Below, one piece after another: positions 17,510 through 34,981 of a DNA stretch of 64,000 nucleotides. A program made the translations under genes and the position numbers. The stretch's first letter is position 1, and every line of letters starts with the position of its first letter. The notes beneath the pieces were generated by a model. That model was not told the origin of the DNA, did not search any database, and saw nothing but the letters and a program-made list of their open reading frames with translations. The stretch is taken from the NCBI RefSeq assembly GCF_058153355.1, contig NZ_CM177019.1; one strand, given 5' to 3'.

Positions 17510-18157
17510 TTAGCTAATTGAAACGCCTTTCACCCCTGCCATACCTTTTAATAATCGCAACAGATCTTCTATCGACGTCGTGGCATGAAGCTGGATATCA
17601 ATGGCGACCACTTCATGATCTTCATTTTCCTGCAACGAAACTAAATCCGTTTTTATTTTTTGCTGCTTAAACCAGTCGAGCATTGATACCGTATTACCGT
17701 TCACTAATGTCAGCTGTAAATGGTAATTTTTATTCATCAGGCGGAAGGTTAATTGATGGAAGACTTCCAGCACCAGTAAGGTCATCACTGAACCATAAAT
17801 GCCCAGTTCGTACATACCGCTACCAATAACCATACCAATGGCGGCGGTCACCCAGATATCCGCTGCCGTCGTCAGACCTACAATATTTTGGTTACGAACG
17901 AGAATGTTACCTGCACCGATAAACCCGACGCCCGTCACCACCTGAGCAGCAATACGGCTGGGGTCCAGTCCGACGTGATCTAAAGACAGCACGTCAGCAA
18001 AACCATATTTCGAAACAATCATAAACAGGGCGCTTCCCATGCCAATTAATACATGTGTGCGTAACCCTGCTCCTTTGCCGCGCATTTGCCTTTCCATGCC
18101 AATAGCGCCACAGGCAATTGCTGCGAGTATAAGACGTATAATAAATTCTGTTGTCAT
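17510..18157 (-). CDS. yhiD: MgtC-family inner-membrane protein YhiD
   Basis: ORF 17510..18169 trimmed to MTTEFIIRLILAAIACGAIGMERQ...; matches YhiD. Confidence 0.9.
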   Translation of the reverse strand: MTTEFIIRLILAAIACGAIGMERQMRGKGAGLRTHVLIGMGSALFMIVSKYGFADVLSLDHVGLDPSRIAAQVVTGVGFIGAGNILVRNQNIVGLTTAADIWVTAAIGMVIGSGMYELGIYGSVMTLLVLEVFHQLTFRLMNKNYHLQLTLVNGNTVSMLDWFKQQKIKTDLVSLQENEDHEVVAIDIQLHATTSIEDLLRLLKGMAGVKGVSIS

Positions 18158-18220
18158 ATAAAAATGCAAAAAGGAGCAGCAAGATGGCTCAACTTGCTAC
18201 TCCTTTTTACTTGTGCCCCA

Positions 18221-18547
18221 TTAATTCGGCAAGTCATTAGATGCTTGATTTTTGAAAGTATACAAATTTTTCTGCGGATTTTTTTTGCAGTATTCGATCA
18301 CTTTAGGAATTTGAGTAAGATCGGTTTCATTTAAAGTAACAGTATCACCACCTTTATAAACTGTTTCTTCATGCAGCATCCACCACGCAACCGGTGTCAT
18401 TGCTTTTGGATTCAGATCAATAAATTCCTGGCAAGTCATATCTTTAGCGGATTCATTGGCTGCCAGCGCAGATTGTGCGTTCACCAGTGACAAAGCCGCT
18501 ACAGCGCCCATAAAAATAAACGCTTTACGGAGAGATGAAATATTCAT
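18221..18547 (-). CDS. hdeB: Periplasmic acid-stress chaperone HdeB
   Basis: ORF 18221..18559 trimmed to MNISSLRKAF...; matches HdeB. Confidence 0.9.
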   Translation of the reverse strand: MNISSLRKAFIFMGAVAALSLVNAQSALAANESAKDMTCQEFIDLNPKAMTPVAWWMLHEETVYKGGDTVTLNETDLTQIPKVIEYCKKNPQKNLYTFKNQASNDLPN

Positions 18548-18662
18548 TTTGTAACCCATTCAATATAGAGATTAAATATGAACAGAAGGAATAGCTGCTT
18601 TTGAAGAAGGTATTCCTACCTGTTCAATATGCAAGGAAGTACGATGTAACGTATTCCCGGAA

Positions 18663-18995
18663 TTACATATCTTTCTTAACTTTGTCCCATTCGCTTTTAA
18701 CTTTATCTTTAAAGTTGGCTTGTTTATCCTGAGTACAAGCCTGAACGATCGCTGGGGTTACGGTTGCAATACCCTGAACATCTAAAACCGCATCTTCTGG
18801 TTTATCTTTATTGTTCAGTGCTTCAGCAAAACCAACTGCAGTTGGCTGGAAGGATTCGTCCACAGCCAGAAAATCTTCACAGGTCCAGGTGTTGACCGGT
18901 TTTTTGTTATCAGCTGCTTTTTGTGCATCCGCTGCATTGCTCACCACTGGCAGAAGAAGCAGACCACCAAGAATAACGCCTAATACTTTTTTCAT
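18663..18995 (-). CDS. hdeA: Periplasmic acid-stress chaperone HdeA (110 aa)
   Basis: ORF 18663..18995; MKKVLGVILGGLLLLPVVSNAADAQKAADNKKPVNTWTCEDF...; matches HdeA. Confidence 0.95.
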   Translation of the reverse strand: MKKVLGVILGGLLLLPVVSNAADAQKAADNKKPVNTWTCEDFLAVDESFQPTAVGFAEALNNKDKPEDAVLDVQGIATVTPAIVQACTQDKQANFKDKVKSEWDKVKKDM

Positions 18996-19249
18996 CGTAA
19001 TATCCTCAACTATAAAGTGAAAGAGCCGTCACGAATCAATTTCGACACTGAGGTTATAACCTGGTTTTCTGTATATGTCATGTTGATGGAAAATATCAAA
19101 ATCAGATATTTTTATTTCAATACAATGAGTTACAGATGCATCTGATACTGTAATTAGGAAATTTTTATTAAATCGACTGCATTCTTAGACGCGTTTTTGG
19201 CATAGATTGATAGCAGGGGATTTTCTTCTTAATTTTATAGGGTGGTTCT

Positions 19250-19822
19250 ATGTTATATATAGATAAGGCAACAATTTTGAAGTTTGATCTGGAGATGCTT
19301 AAAAAACATCGCAGAGCAATCCAGTTTATTGCCGTGCTGCTGTTTATCGTCGGGTTGCTGTGTATCAGTTTTCCGTTCGTCTCTGGCGATATTTTAAGCA
19401 CAGTAGTGGGTGCATTATTAATCTGCTCGGGTATTGCGCTTATTGTCGGGTTATTCAGCAACCGTAGTCATAATTTCTGGCCGGTATTATCCGGTTTCCT
19501 CGTCGCAGTCGCCTATTTATTGATCGGCTATTTCTTCATCCGCGCACCAGAGCTGGGCATTTTTGCCATTGCGGCATTTATTGCCGGTTTGTTCTGTGTG
19601 GCAGGGGTTATTCGCCTGATGAGTTGGTATCGTCAGCGTTCAATGAAAGGCAGTTGGCTACAGCTCGTTATTGGTGTGCTGGATATCGTCATTGCCTGGA
19701 TATTCCTTGGTGCAACGCCGATGGTTTCTGTAACGCTGGTTTCCACACTAGTGGGAATTGAACTGATATTTAGCGCCGCTAGCCTGTTCAGCTTCGCCAG
19801 TTTGTTTGTTAAAAAGCAATAA
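19250..19822 (+). CDS. hdeD: Acid-resistance membrane protein HdeD (190 aa)
   Basis: ORF 19250..19822; divergent from hdeAB; matches HdeD. Confidence 0.9.
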   Translation: MLYIDKATILKFDLEMLKKHRRAIQFIAVLLFIVGLLCISFPFVSGDILSTVVGALLICSGIALIVGLFSNRSHNFWPVLSGFLVAVAYLLIGYFFIRAPELGIFAIAAFIAGLFCVAGVIRLMSWYRQRSMKGSWLQLVIGVLDIVIAWIFLGATPMVSVTLVSTLVGIELIFSAASLFSFASLFVKKQ

Positions 19823-19839
19823 TTATCCCTATTGCCACC

Positions 19840-19870
19840 TGGATCATAGTCACTTAATGTGACTATGATC
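19840..19870. repeat. Perfect 13-bp-arm palindrome 18 bp after the hdeD stop (possible terminator or protein-binding site)
   Basis: ggatcatagtcac-ttaat-gtgactatgatcc. Confidence 0.5.
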
Positions 19871-20226
19871 CAATTAATACTCTCTCCGCTACACAGCATT
19901 TTAGATCAATTGCGCGCTATCATTGAAATAATTATCTGCTGATGAGTATTTCAACCTACTGAATTTTATCTGATTTTTTTCATTGCATGGCAAATTAGCC
20001 ATTTCAAACATTATCATGGCTGATATTTTCCGTAGTCAGGTTTAATGTTTTAAAAGTGCTGTGGGAAAGTGAACAAAGAGTTCCGTAAGCGTTGATGCTA
20101 TGGGCGGTTAAATAAGTAATCCGGGTTCATTTTTTTATAACTGGCGTTGATTACATTGCATAAATATCCGTGTCTCCAGACGCTATATAAAAACCTGAAG
20201 ACATGAATGAGTTATTTACTCAGGTA

Positions 20227-20310
20227 ATTTCAATGCGTTAAAAGAAAGCTGGCAATCCAATTGCCAGCTTAAGTCGAAACAAGGAGACTCGATATTTAAA
20301 TCGGATTACA
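20227..20310 (-). ncRNA. arrS: Possible antisense sRNA in the gadE leader (ArrS-like); only its minus-strand terminator is directly visible
   Basis: Perfect hairpin agctggcaat-cca-attgccagct (20237..20259) followed on the minus strand by UUCUUUU; extent and identity are inferred from recalled K-12 organisation. Confidence 0.3.
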
Positions 20311-20620
20311 TTTTAACTTTAGTAATATTCTTCAGAGATCACAAACTGGTTATTGATAACTTATTCTTGGGCAGTAATCCGCAAACGTTAATTTTTTGTT
20401 TGCAGTTTACAATCTGATAACAACCAGGAATTTTACTTAGGATCAATATATGGAGTGCGTGATGGATAAATCTGAAGTATTGATTAGTGTTAATAGACGT
20501 ATTAGTTCACGAAGGGCAAGGTTCTTATAGGCGTTTACTATATTGAACAACGATTCGAACAGGGATGTAAATAATGAAAAGGATGACATGTTCGAAACGA
20601 TAACGGCTAAGGAGCAAGTT

Positions 20621-21148
20621 ATGATTTTTCTCATGACGAAAGATTCTTTTCTTTTACAGGGCTTTTGGCAGTTGAAAGATAATCACGAAATGATAAAAAT
20701 CAATTCCCTGTCAGAGATCAAAAAAGTAGGTAATAAACCCTTCAAGGTTATCATTGATACCTATCACAACCATATCCTTGATGAAGAAGCGATTAAATTT
20801 CTGGAGAAATTAGACGCCGAGAGAATTATTGTTTTGGCACCTTATCACATCAGTAAACTAAAAGCTAAAGCGCCTATTTATTTTGTCAGCCGCAAAGAAA
20901 GTATCAAAAATCTTCTTGAGATTACTTATGGTAAACACTTGCCCCATAAGAATTCACAATTATGTTTTTCACATAATCAGTTCAAAATTATGCAGCTGAT
21001 TCTGAAAAACAAAAACGAAAGCAATATCACGTCAACGCTCAATATTTCGCAACAAACATTAAAGATTCAGAAATTCAACATTATGTACAAGCTGAAACTA
21101 AGACGTATGAGCGACATCGTCACCCTGGGTATCACATCTTATTTTTAG
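20621..21148 (+). CDS. gadE: LuxR-family acid-resistance master regulator GadE (175 aa)
   Basis: ORF 20543..21148 trimmed to MIFLMTKDSFLLQGFWQLKDNHEMIKINSLSEIKK...; matches GadE; roughly 800-bp upstream regulatory region. Confidence 0.9.
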   Translation: MIFLMTKDSFLLQGFWQLKDNHEMIKINSLSEIKKVGNKPFKVIIDTYHNHILDEEAIKFLEKLDAERIIVLAPYHISKLKAKAPIYFVSRKESIKNLLEITYGKHLPHKNSQLCFSHNQFKIMQLILKNKNESNITSTLNISQQTLKIQKFNIMYKLKLRRMSDIVTLGITSYF

Positions 21149-21486
21149 TCAGGACATAATTAACTGAAAATGATGGCAGGCATGAAGAGGGATGCAGATG
21201 CTGATTTCATTATCCCCGGTGATGACTAAAGGAGAGGCGAAAACGACTTTATTCCCCTGGTATGTGTATCCACCAGTAGAACCCTTCGTTGCCCGAATGC
21301 TGGCAGGAACTGTTGGCAGAACGGCAACATTTTTTTTGTCGTTGACCTCACCATGTCGATCACTGTGCTTGCATCCCATCTTACTGGCTGACAACCCCAC
21401 TATGCCGCTGGTCTGTAAATCCCTCATACCTCTCCTCGCGCGCAATTTAAAGAACCGTTATATCTCAAGAATTTTCAGGGACTAAA

Positions 21487-22644
21487 ATGAACAGAAGAAG
21501 AAAACTGTTAATACCGTTGTTATTCTGCGGCGCGATGCTCACCGCCTGCGATGACAAATCGACGGAAAACGCCGCCGCCATGACGCCTGAGGTCGGTGTC
21601 GTCACACTCTCCCCCGGTTCGGTCAATGTGTTGAGCGAATTGCCCGGTAGAACCGTTCCTTATGAAGTTGCCGAGATACGCCCTCAGGTGGGCGGTATTA
21701 TCATTAAACGCAACTTTATCGAAGGCGATAAAGTGAACCAGGGCGATTCGCTGTATCAGATTGATCCTGCGCCTTTACAGGCCGATCTAAACTCCGCCAA
21801 AGGCTCGTTGGCGAAAGCACTCTCAACCGCCAGCAATGCCCGCATCACCTTTAACCGCCAGGCATCATTGCTGAAGACCAACTACGTTAGCCGTCAGGAT
21901 TACGACACCGAGCGCACCCAGCTGAATGAAGCAGAAGCCAATGTCACCGTCGCCAAAGCGGCTGTTGAACAGGCGACGATCAATCTGCAATACGCGAATG
22001 TCACCTCGCCGATTACGGGCGTCAGCGGGAAATCGTCGGTGACCGTCGGCGCACTCGTTACCGCTAATCAAGCCGATTCACTGGTTACCGTGCAACGTCT
22101 GGACCCGATTTATGTCGATCTCACGCAGTCGGTGCAGGATTTTTTGCGCATGAAAGAAGAGGTCGCCAGTGGACAAATCAAACAGGTTCAGGGCAGTACG
22201 CCAGTACAGCTCAATCTGGAAAATGGTAAACGTTACAGCCAGACCGGCACGCTGAAATTCTCCGACCCGACGGTGGATGAAACCACGGGCTCCGTGACGT
22301 TACGGGCGATTTTCCCCAACCCAAATGGTGACTTGCTGCCAGGTATGTATGTCACGGCATTAGTGGATGAAGGTAGCCGCCAGAATGTATTACTGGTGCC
22401 GCAGGAAGGCGTCACCCACAACGCCCAGGGTAAAGCAACGGCGCTCATTCTGGATAAAGACGATGTTGTGCAGCTACGCGAAATTAAAGCCAGCAAAGCC
22501 ATCGGCGACCAGTGGGTTGTCACCTCTGGCTTGCAGGCTGGCGATCGGGTGATCGTTTCCGGTTTGCAACGTATTCATCCGGGTATCAAAGCACGTGCAA
22601 TTTCCTCCAGCCAGGAAAACGCCAGCACCGAATCGAAACAATAA
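21487..22644 (+). CDS. mdtE: RND efflux membrane-fusion protein MdtE (385 aa)
   Basis: ORF 21487..22644; lipobox LTAC; matches MdtE. Confidence 0.95.
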   Translation: MNRRRKLLIPLLFCGAMLTACDDKSTENAAAMTPEVGVVTLSPGSVNVLSELPGRTVPYEVAEIRPQVGGIIIKRNFIEGDKVNQGDSLYQIDPAPLQADLNSAKGSLAKALSTASNARITFNRQASLLKTNYVSRQDYDTERTQLNEAEANVTVAKAAVEQATINLQYANVTSPITGVSGKSSVTVGALVTANQADSLVTVQRLDPIYVDLTQSVQDFLRMKEEVASGQIKQVQGSTPVQLNLENGKRYSQTGTLKFSDPTVDETTGSVTLRAIFPNPNGDLLPGMYVTALVDEGSRQNVLLVPQEGVTHNAQGKATALILDKDDVVQLREIKASKAIGDQWVVTSGLQAGDRVIVSGLQRIHPGIKARAISSSQENASTESKQ

Positions 22645-33555: not shown

Positions 33556-34981
33556 TAATGCCGATCAGTTAAGGATCAGTTGACCGATCCAGTGGCTGTG
33601 TAAGAATCCGGAAACGCTCACTTGTTTCCGGATTTTTTTATGCACATTGGACAGGCTCTTGATCTGGTATCCCGTTACGATTCTCTGCGTAACCCACTGA
33701 CTTCTCTGGGGGATTACCTCGACCCCGAACTCATCTCTCGTTGCCTTGCCGAATCAGGTACTGTAACGCTACGCAAGCGCCGTCTTCCCCTCGAAATGAT
33801 GGTCTGGTGTATTGTTGGCATGGCGCTTGAGCGTAAAGAACCTCTTCACCAGATTGTGAATCGCCTGGACATCATGCTGCCGGGCAATCGCCCCTTCGTT
33901 GCCCCCAGTGCCGTTATTCAGGCCCGCCAGCGCCTGGGAAGTGAGGCTGTCCGCCGCGTGTTCACGAAAACAGCGCAGCTCTGGCATAACGCCACGCCGC
34001 ATCCGCACTGGTGCGGCCTGACCCTGCTGGCCATCGATGGTGTGTTCTGGCGCACACCGGATACACCAGAGAACGATGCAGCCTTCCCCCGCCAGACACA
34101 TGCCGGGAACCCGGCGCTCTACCCGCAGGTCAAAATGGTCTGCCAGATGGAACTGACCAGCCATCTGCTGACGGCTGCAGCCTTCGGCACGATGAAGAAC
34201 AGCGAAAATGAGCTTGCTGAGCAACTTATAGAACAAACCGGCGATAACACTCTGACGTTAATGGATAAAGGTTATTACTCACTGGGACTGTTAAATGCCT
34301 GGAGCCTGGCGGGAGAACACCGCCACTGGATGATACCTCTCAGAAAGGGAGCGCAATATGAAGAGATCAGAAAACTGGGTAAAGGCGATCATCTGGTGAA
34401 GCTGAAAACCAGCCCGCAGGCACGAAAAAAGTGGCCGGGACTGGGAAATGAAGTGACAGCCCGCCTGCTGACCGTGACGCGCAAAGGAAAAGTCTGCCAT
34501 CTGCTGACGTCGATGACGGACGCCATGCGCTTCCCCGGAGGAGAAATGGCGGATCTGTACAGTCATCGCTGGGAAATCGAACTGGGATACAGGGAGATAA
34601 AACAGACGATGCAACTGAGCAGGCTGACGCTGAGAAGTAAAAAGCCGGAGCTTGTGGAGCAAGAGCTGTGGGGTGTCTTACTGGCTTATAATCTGGTGAG
34701 ATATCAGATGATTAAAATGGCGGAACATCTGAAAGGTTACTGGCCGAATCAACTGAGTTTCTCAGAATCATGCGGAATGGTGATGAGAATGCTGATGACA
34801 TTGCAGGGCGCTTCACCGGGACGTATACCGGAGCTGATGCGCGATCTTGCAAGTATGGGACAACTTGTGAAATTACCGACAAGAAGGGAAAGGGCCTTCC
34901 CGAGAGTGGTAAAGGAGAGGCCCTGGAAATACCCCACAGCCCCGAAAAAGAGCCAGTCAGTTGCTTAACTGACTGGCATTA
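33556..34981 (+). mobile_element. IS4 copy 2 (1426 bp), same orientation as copy 1
   Basis: Same termini as copy 1; its own 12-bp target duplication cttcaggaggag at 33544..33555 and 34982..34993; the transposase ORF is identical at the protein level to copy 1. Confidence 0.9.
33640..34968 (+). CDS. insG: IS4 transposase InsG (442 aa)
   Basis: ORF 33622..34968; identical translation to the ORF at 1441..2787. Confidence 0.9.

Follow-up and report, generated by a model that had tools for sequence, protein, structure and literature searches.

A conserved U-poor stem-loop after hdeD as the likely protective 3' end of the hdeD mRNA in Escherichia coli

The analyzed window, a stretch of 64 kb (64,000 nucleotides of contig NZ_CM177019.1, assembly GCF_058153355.1), contains the Escherichia coli acid fitness island. 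Here, hdeB and hdeA face hdeD (Table 1), which is followed by a spacer of 798 bp and then by gadE (ATG at 20621) and mdtE, as identified from the list of open reading frames (ORFs) and from the RefSeq annotation of orthologous loci. Positions 18200-22200 share 99.7% identity with E. coli strain EC42405. Since just 15 of about 5,400 genomes are at least 99% identical over this interval, the window carries a rare allele at the hdeD-gadE locus. Conservation of the hdeD-gadE spacer across Escherichia is very uneven: it is about 100% at the P3 promoter (19985-20065) and at the arrS/P2 region (20240-20370), and only 26-39% at 20165-20235. The island is enclosed by two direct copies of an IS4-type insertion sequence of 1,426 bp (1375-2800 and 33556-34981, 32,181 bp apart), with a transposase of 448 amino acids that matches the Pfam families Nterm_IS4 and DDE_Tnp_1, and each copy has its own 12-bp target duplication (CTCTCCGGGAAG; CTTCAGGAGGAG). 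In addition, the gadE-mdtE spacer gives a match to the Rfam sRNA family ES205 (21266-21337, plus strand; 105 bits versus a gathering score of 86), presumably the gadE 3' UTR-derived sRNA GadF of the literature. The RefSeq hypothetical protein annotated opposite this match (ORF 21149-21445, minus strand) may be spurious.

TABLE 1. Features of hdeD and of the stretch on its 3' side, in window coordinates.
Feature	Position	Strand	Description
hdeB	18221-18559	-	Faces hdeD
hdeA	18663-18995	-	Faces hdeD
hdeD coding sequence	19250-19822	+	190 amino acids, TAA stop at 19820-19822; from the ORF list, Pfam DUF308 and the RefSeq name "acid-resistance protein HdeD" in orthologous loci
Spacer from hdeD stop to stem	19823-19839	+	17 nt; poorly conserved, mean pairwise identity 0.54
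Hairpin 5' arm, TGGATCATAGTCAC	19840-19853	+	Identity 0.83 across Escherichia; pairing and covariation
Hairpin loop, TTAAT	19854-19858	+	Identity 0.50; TTGAT in K-12, ATTAA (exact reverse complement) in B2-like strains, different in other species
Hairpin 3' arm, GTGACTATGATCCA	19859-19872	+	Identity 0.83; pairing and covariation
C-rich, G-poor unstructured tract, candidate Rho-loading patch	19873-19902	+	9 C and 2 G; from composition, unpaired in the fold
Equivalent of the K-12 steady-state RNA 3' end	19876	+	MG1655 3657621, transferred through gap-free alignment
Equivalent of the reported Rho termination region	19988	+	MG1655 3657733; Rho score 6.8, p = 2e-20; coarse resolution

Directly after hdeD, positions 19840-19872 read TGGATCATAGTCAC-TTAAT-GTGACTATGATCCA, a palindrome with perfect arms of 14 nt (19840-19853 and 19859-19872) whose 14-bp stem starts 17 nt past the hdeD stop codon. 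The initial annotation had described a perfect palindrome with 13-bp arms at 19840-19870, located 18 bp from the stop. The palindrome is real and the distance is correct for a 13-bp arm, but the arms measure 14 nt and the element extends to 19872. It is the longest perfect hairpin of the window. Perfect arms of 14 bp with loops of 3-8 nt arose in none of 500 dinucleotide-preserving shuffles, with an analytic expectation of 0.0014 per window; when the scan was loosened to loops of 0-8 nt, one of 60 shuffles reached 14-bp arms. The RNA fold of the 86-nt context has an energy of -30.2 kcal/mol (z = -7.96 for the plus strand and -6.7 for the minus strand), and the hairpin by itself one of -23.7 kcal/mol. 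RefSeq annotates nothing at the hairpin in orthologous loci, and an Rfam search of 18000-22000 with E-values up to 1 gave no match there.

The stem is followed by ATTAATAC, with three T in the first eight nucleotides and a TransTermHP-style tail score of -2.56 versus -3.65 for the terminator of arrS. The latter lies 370 nt away (20246-20270, minus strand) and consists of an 11-bp hairpin followed by TCTTTT; the K-12 arrS 3' end is at 3657985. Both elements are stem-loops at a transcript 3' end, and the stability of the hdeD stem is comparable or greater. However, the arrS terminator has five T in eight positions and is called by a consensus terminator scan, whereas the hdeD hairpin has three and is left uncalled. 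The earlier statement that the palindrome has no U-tract is thus confirmed.

Of 5426 complete E. coli genomes, 5412 carry the hairpin, each at one locus (two places reported per genome were taken as both strands of the same palindrome), and it never occurs on the plasmids of these genomes. Recurrence elsewhere in the genome, which the initial annotation had proposed to look for, was not found: there is a single locus per genome, and the arm sequence does not recur within the window. The sole matches in a plasmid collection are three records of 4.8-4.9 Mb, judged to be mislabelled chromosomes, and a phage collection gave no match. Because the hairpin occupies a single locus and is absent from true plasmids and phages, it is not a REP-like repeat or part of another mobile palindromic element, and it belongs to no Rfam family. 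One genome has a degraded version: in E. coli SCU-316, where hdeD is annotated as frameshifted, a 2-nt deletion removes the two outer pairs of the hairpin and a second 2-nt deletion lies in the C-rich tract, at around positions 1483-1540 of the extracted locus. This single case could reflect decay of the 3' element under relaxed selection after the death of hdeD. A K-12-like hdeD-gadE region with a K-12-type hairpin and 98% HdeD identity is also found on an 8.6-kb contig (NZ_JAUFQN010000010.1) of the assembly of 'Flavobacterium paronense' CECT 8460, almost certainly as E. coli contamination.

To compare the element between species, HdeD was searched in one genome per species. This retrieved E. 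coli-like genomes, Escherichia sp. MOD1-EC7003, E. whittamii, Escherichia sp. E1V33, E. albertii, two divergent species representatives labelled E. coli (SCPM-O-B-8794 and E69), and a 57%-identical homologue in Kluyvera cryocrescens. A hairpin after hdeD is kept in all Escherichia found by this search despite strongly diverged surroundings, including a stop-to-stem spacer that is longer by 16-17 nt in E. albertii, E. whittamii and the cryptic clades. The outer stem changes between species from GGATC...GATCC to GCCTC...GAGGC, with two adjacent pairs changed on both sides, and the outermost pair is either U-A or C-G, alternating in both clades; the inner 9 bp of each arm are nearly invariant. 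Over 12 distinct variants from E. coli, E. albertii, E. whittamii and the cryptic clades, standard pairing is present in 95.2% of the alignment cells, and double-sided changes affect 3 of the 14 pairs in 10 cells (U-A/C-G, G-C/C-G and A-U/C-G), the independent covariation events being few. The covariation score is 0.200 versus 0.090 for shuffled alignments, none of 500 reaching 0.200, and slid registers pair at 23-45%; the covariation was also run on a 9-sequence version. Mean pairwise identity is 0.83 in each arm, compared to 0.62 over the next 100 nt and the lower values of the upstream spacer and loop (Table 1). In every lineage the hairpin folds with -17 to -25 kcal/mol. Since this stability is kept in all lineages while the number of T in the first eight downstream bases ranges from 1 to 4, the conserved element is the helix and not a U-tract. 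Wobble pairs were considered for assigning the strand, and this was dropped because the lineages point to different strands: the G.U pairs of the E69 representative and of strain E7-1N7 work only on the plus strand, and the A.C mismatch of the group of E. albertii, E. whittamii and E1V33 would be a G.U on the minus strand, where those hairpins fold better.

The same architecture recurs outside Escherichia. In K. cryocrescens NBRC 102467 the hdeD homologue is followed, 14 nt past its stop, by a perfect, U-less 11-bp hairpin, ACGATCTACCC-GAGC-GGGTAGATCGT (positions 2082-2107 of the extracted locus). As this hairpin is unrelated in sequence yet equally placed, it suggests that architecture rather than sequence is the recurring feature. 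The DNA 3' of the Kluyvera hairpin is G-rich, unlike the C-rich Escherichia counterpart.

Within E. coli, the hairpin also exists in two orientations. B2-like strains carry CTGGATCATAGTCAC-ATTAA-GTGACTATGATCCAG, the exact reverse complement of the window hairpin (no mismatches, versus three in forward orientation); the B2-type arms are extended to 15 bp (strains 81009, Z1323HEC0300 and E7-1N7) and lie at about positions 124-158 in two of the extracted loci. The flip was read in three genomes, which belong to an identity band of about 1,198 genomes. Judged from the sequences, this natural flip polymorphism looks like the outcome of inversion or template switching inside the palindrome. The E69 representative was considered as a candidate for a flipped albertii-type hairpin, but its mismatch counts are ambiguous: 11 forward and 8 reverse-complement mismatches to E. 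albertii, and 6 versus 6 to E. whittamii. Because template switching can both perfect and flip palindromes, part of the seemingly compensatory change may be mutational instead of selected.

RNA data from K-12 place a transcript end at this hairpin. Among the Term-seq 3' ends of MG1655, Supplementary file 1 of Adams et al. (2021; eLife, PMC7815308) lists a plus-strand end at 3657621 with an average of 1150 reads, a modest count, on the sheet M63 0.4 (M63 glucose, OD 0.4), one of three conditions. The printed context is CCCCGGTTGTCACCCGGATCATAGTCACTTGATGTGACTATGATCCGATTA|ATACTCTCTC; its register, in which the 3' end is base 51 of 61, was confirmed with thrL, whose end is at 267 and whose stop is at 255, and with position 3657567 for the hdeD stop. 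In K-12 the mapped end therefore lies 4 nt beyond the pair that closes the hairpin, which corresponds to position 19876 of the window. It was classed as 'orphan' since it lies 54 nt past the hdeD stop, beyond the 50-nt limit that these authors set for 'primary' ends. The lists for LB at OD 0.4 and 2.0 do not include this end, and the tables give no minus-strand 3' end near the hairpin. Read-through of the site without an end or processing, which the initial annotation had named as the observation that would count against it, is not what these data display: a 3' end maps right there. Our literature searches retrieved no paper that describes the hairpin or gives the end at 3657621 to hdeD, nothing specific on hdeD in combination with terminators or Term-seq, and, for the arm sequence, just unrelated human CEACAM1 primers.

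Two further ends were noted in the vicinity. On the plus strand an end at 3658019 is situated about 4 nt past the arrS terminator hairpin, which is U-less when read on that strand (Adams et al., 2021; PMC7815308). Given this position, plus-strand gadE-leader or read-through RNAs also end at the arrS hairpin, with the same signature as the hdeD end at 3657621. An internal hdeD 3' end was mapped by Term-seq in M63 at K-12 position 3657126 (plus strand), around 19381 of the window and 131 nt into the ORF. Beside it lies a small hairpin with a T-run that is flagged by the terminator scan at 19377-19389. This internal end could represent premature termination or a processing site linked to sRNAs, hdeD being a target of CyaR and RprA.

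In the same study, a Rho termination region was reported at 3657733 on the plus strand (Supplementary file 2; Adams et al., 2021; PMC7815308), with counts of 101/28 without and 251/475 with bicyclomycin. It is located about 112 nt beyond the mapped end and 67 nt before the P3 start of gadE (-566, corresponding to 3657800). The Rho score (Table 1) compares windows of 800 nt that include gadE promoters, and its position is coarse; induced gadE promoters could account for the bicyclomycin effect just as well, and this effect is no proof of Rho-terminated read-through from hdeD. We found no literature linking hdeD or gadE to bicyclomycin or Rho. The composition of the RNA marks a candidate patch for Rho loading at short range: the C/G ratio in the 30 nt after the stem is 4.5, which is in the top 0.75% of all 30-nt windows of the analyzed stretch, and over the first 30 nt it is 3-10 in other Escherichia lineages despite their sequence divergence, K-12 being weak at 1.6. 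At the 78-nt scale typical of rut sites, the ratio is 1.45 (top 13%) and YC dimers are not enriched.

In this study, we propose that the palindrome acts at the RNA level, and that a hairpin setting the 3' end of hdeD is very probably its role. On the plus strand it would form the 3'-terminal stem-loop of a monocistronic hdeD mRNA, a U-less helix of 14 bp with about -24 kcal/mol, and the 17 nt that separate it from the stop codon would be enough for the stem to stay folded behind a terminating ribosome. RNA polymerase would pass through the hairpin, after which Rho would load on the untranslated, C-rich and G-poor RNA just 3' of it and end transcription within the next 100-170 nt or so, ahead of the start at gadE P3. 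Exonucleases working in 3'-to-5' direction (PNPase, RNase II) would then trim the tail until they are blocked by the helix, leaving a stable end 4 nt past the stem and shielding the hdeD mRNA from further decay. As a by-product, the GadE-activated transcription of hdeD would be kept out of the gadE control region. The stem-loop structure, its selection-like conservation and covariation, and the K-12 3' end mapped at the hairpin are observed. We infer that Rho acts here, that the tail is trimmed and that mRNA stability is affected, and consider termination by Rho followed by trimming somewhat better than an even bet. The reading as a whole, a stabilizing 3'-terminal stem-loop with Rho termination in the buffer of about 110 nt before P3 and subsequent trimming to the stem, is the likely one. 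It agrees with the stability element listed among the options of the initial annotation, which is favored by the plus-strand end 4 nt past the stem, the base-pair covariation and the lack of a conserved U-tract.

This proposal follows a described model. E. coli transcripts terminated by Rho have precise steady-state 3' ends just past stable stem-loops, which are poor in U, act as a block to PNPase and RNase II and are followed by an enrichment of C over G, and REP elements are associated with such transcripts (Dar and Sorek, 2018; PMC6061677). Two features of this class are found at hdeD: a 3' end right after a stable stem-loop, seen in one condition in K-12 and transferred by alignment, and the absence of a U-rich tract. 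The C over G bias is matched in part, and the bicyclomycin-sensitive region further 3' may be another point of resemblance, but the C-rich patch of hdeD is short, its stem is unusually long and perfect, and the action of Rho, PNPase and RNase II is in this case putative. We therefore assign the hdeD hairpin provisionally to the U-less protective 3' stem-loops of Rho-terminated mRNAs. The 3' end of the trp operon is the classical example: Rho terminates transcription at trp t', and the RNA is then trimmed to the trp t hairpin. As proposed here for hdeD, a hairpin that blocks 3' exonucleases sets the mRNA end and termination takes place further 3'; the trp t hairpin, however, has a U-run and some intrinsic terminator activity, whereas the hdeD hairpin is devoid of a U-run in every lineage. 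REP elements that stabilize mRNA 3' ends are likewise transcribed extragenic palindromes that would resist exonucleases, yet the hdeD element is single-copy, AT-rich, unrelated in sequence and without Rfam match.

An alternative is that the hairpin itself terminates transcription as an atypical, U-poor intrinsic terminator, possibly assisted by NusA or NusG. Release would then take place a few nucleotides past the stem, independently of Rho and with minimal trimming or none. The mapped end just 4 nt past a very strong stem would fit such release, the tail AUUAAUAC has some U, its score of -2.56 is borderline (the B2 type reaches -3.28), and the evidence for Rho is coarse and ambiguous. On the other hand, a U-tract is not conserved, as E. 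albertii and the E69 representative keep the hairpin with only 1-2 T in the first 8 nt, and the consensus scan that misses the hairpin does call the nearby arrS terminator. U-less hairpin-associated ends in E. coli are, moreover, generally Rho-dependent (Dar and Sorek, 2018; PMC6061677). In the accessible part of the supplements of TERMITe, a Term-seq survey of intrinsic terminators, hdeD has no entry, which weighs weakly. The reads at the hdeD end are about 1,000-fold below those at the arrS end in the same dataset, a difference that largely reflects expression level. Overall, we regard an atypical intrinsic terminator as rather unlikely. A canonical one is rejected, with no U-tract in any lineage, no call by the scan and a tail score well short of that of arrS. 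The Rho-independent-like terminator suggested in the initial annotation thus stands with respect to a hairpin at the transcript end and falls with respect to the U-tract that would define it, which is missing throughout.

The palindrome might also be largely neutral, with template switching between the arms at the DNA level keeping it perfect and sometimes flipping it, so that the RNA 3' end would be incidental and unselected. The exact reverse complement in the B2 type demonstrates hairpin dynamics at the DNA level, correction from arm to arm would mimic compensatory change, and SCU-316, with a frameshifted hdeD and two outer pairs lost, fits as well, be it as a single anecdote. However, neutrality does not easily account for arms that are clearly more conserved than flanks with about 55-60% identity and indels between species, for the retention in 5412 of 5426 genomes, or for the unrelated perfect hairpin equally placed after the Kluyvera homologue. 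We consider it quite improbable.

Alternatively, the palindrome could function as double-stranded DNA. At -781 to -749, on the outermost upstream margin of the gadE P3 control region, it would be either an operator bound by a dimeric regulator or a nucleation point for nucleoid proteins. It is part of the 'P3' fragment (-798 to -566), to which ArcA-P binds at multiple sites and without which anaerobic activation fails, and the larger P3 fragment is also bound by regulators such as ArcA-P and H-NS. Moreover, there is hardly any variation among Escherichia in the inner 9 bp of each arm, and the loop varies freely as the spacer does in many operators with two half-sites. Yet, the ChIP-exo footprints of GadE, GadW and GadX are off the hairpin, the nearest about 95 nt downstream, and the occupancy peaks described for the locus are at promoters. 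The published ArcA motif is a direct repeat and not a palindrome, and we did not find the sequence printed as a binding site in the literature. The hairpin is also 180-215 bp upstream of the P3 start, and about 110 poorly conserved bases precede the fully conserved promoter block. Furthermore, two adjacent positions switch together in both half-sites (GGATC/GATCC to GCCTC/GAGGC), by which pairing is kept and the contact surface is altered, and the GATC sites are lost outside E. coli. The dimeric regulator site considered in the initial annotation thus finds no positive evidence: the footprints of these three regulators lie elsewhere, and from species to species G-C becomes C-G and A-T becomes C-G in both half-sites. 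We judge an operator very improbable. To our knowledge, none of the operators of CRP, FNR, SoxR, OxyR, TrpR, SlmA or lambda-like repressors fits the order or spacing of the half-sites.

Cleavage of the hdeD 3' UTR by RNase III, another option of the initial annotation, is extremely unlikely: the RNA duplex is perfect and uninterrupted, but with 14-15 bp it is short compared to natural E. coli substrates, which usually have around 20 bp or more, or about two helical turns; the mapped end lies 4 nt outside the stem and not inside it with a 2-nt overhang, and we found no literature link between RNase III and the hdeD 3' region.

Three other ideas were dropped. Dam or SeqA action at the two symmetric GATC sites in the arms is rejected, as these sites become CCTC/GAGG in other Escherichia and the helix is kept. 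A hairpin at the 5' end of a far-upstream gadE transcript was based on a weak sigma-70 match ending at 19823, and such matches in the region number 4 versus 5.6 expected. The Shigella sRNA Ssr54 from the hdeD/yhiE spacer is encoded on the minus strand and most likely corresponds to arrS, so it is not the hdeD hairpin.

Read as a protective 3' stem-loop, the hdeD hairpin is most likely an ordinary bacterial element of an already described kind that has itself escaped annotation. It is only mildly unusual in the length and perfection of its stem and in its natural flip polymorphism. The hdeD transcription unit gains a defined 3' boundary, and an 'orphan' 3' end of a published Term-seq dataset is explained. 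In addition, the effective start of the 798-bp gadE control region is marked: its first 50 or so bases are part of the hdeD mRNA, and a poorly conserved buffer of about 110 bases follows. Reporter constructs for the region upstream of gadE that start at -798 consequently include a strong transcribed hairpin.

A further role, which we consider unlikely, is that of a conditional insulator, formed by the hairpin together with the termination zone behind it, which would separate hdeD from the 'sensory integration' region of gadE. Transcription of hdeD is activated by GadE, and heterogeneous, correlated expression of hdeD and gadE has been reported in single cells. If such an insulator exists, weakened termination across the 110 nt that lead from the hairpin to P3, be it by low Rho activity, acid stress or changes in H-NS/ArcA occupancy, would let hdeD transcripts extend into gadE. 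This would add a read-through arm to the positive feedback of GadE and might contribute to the heterogeneous, correlated expression of both genes.
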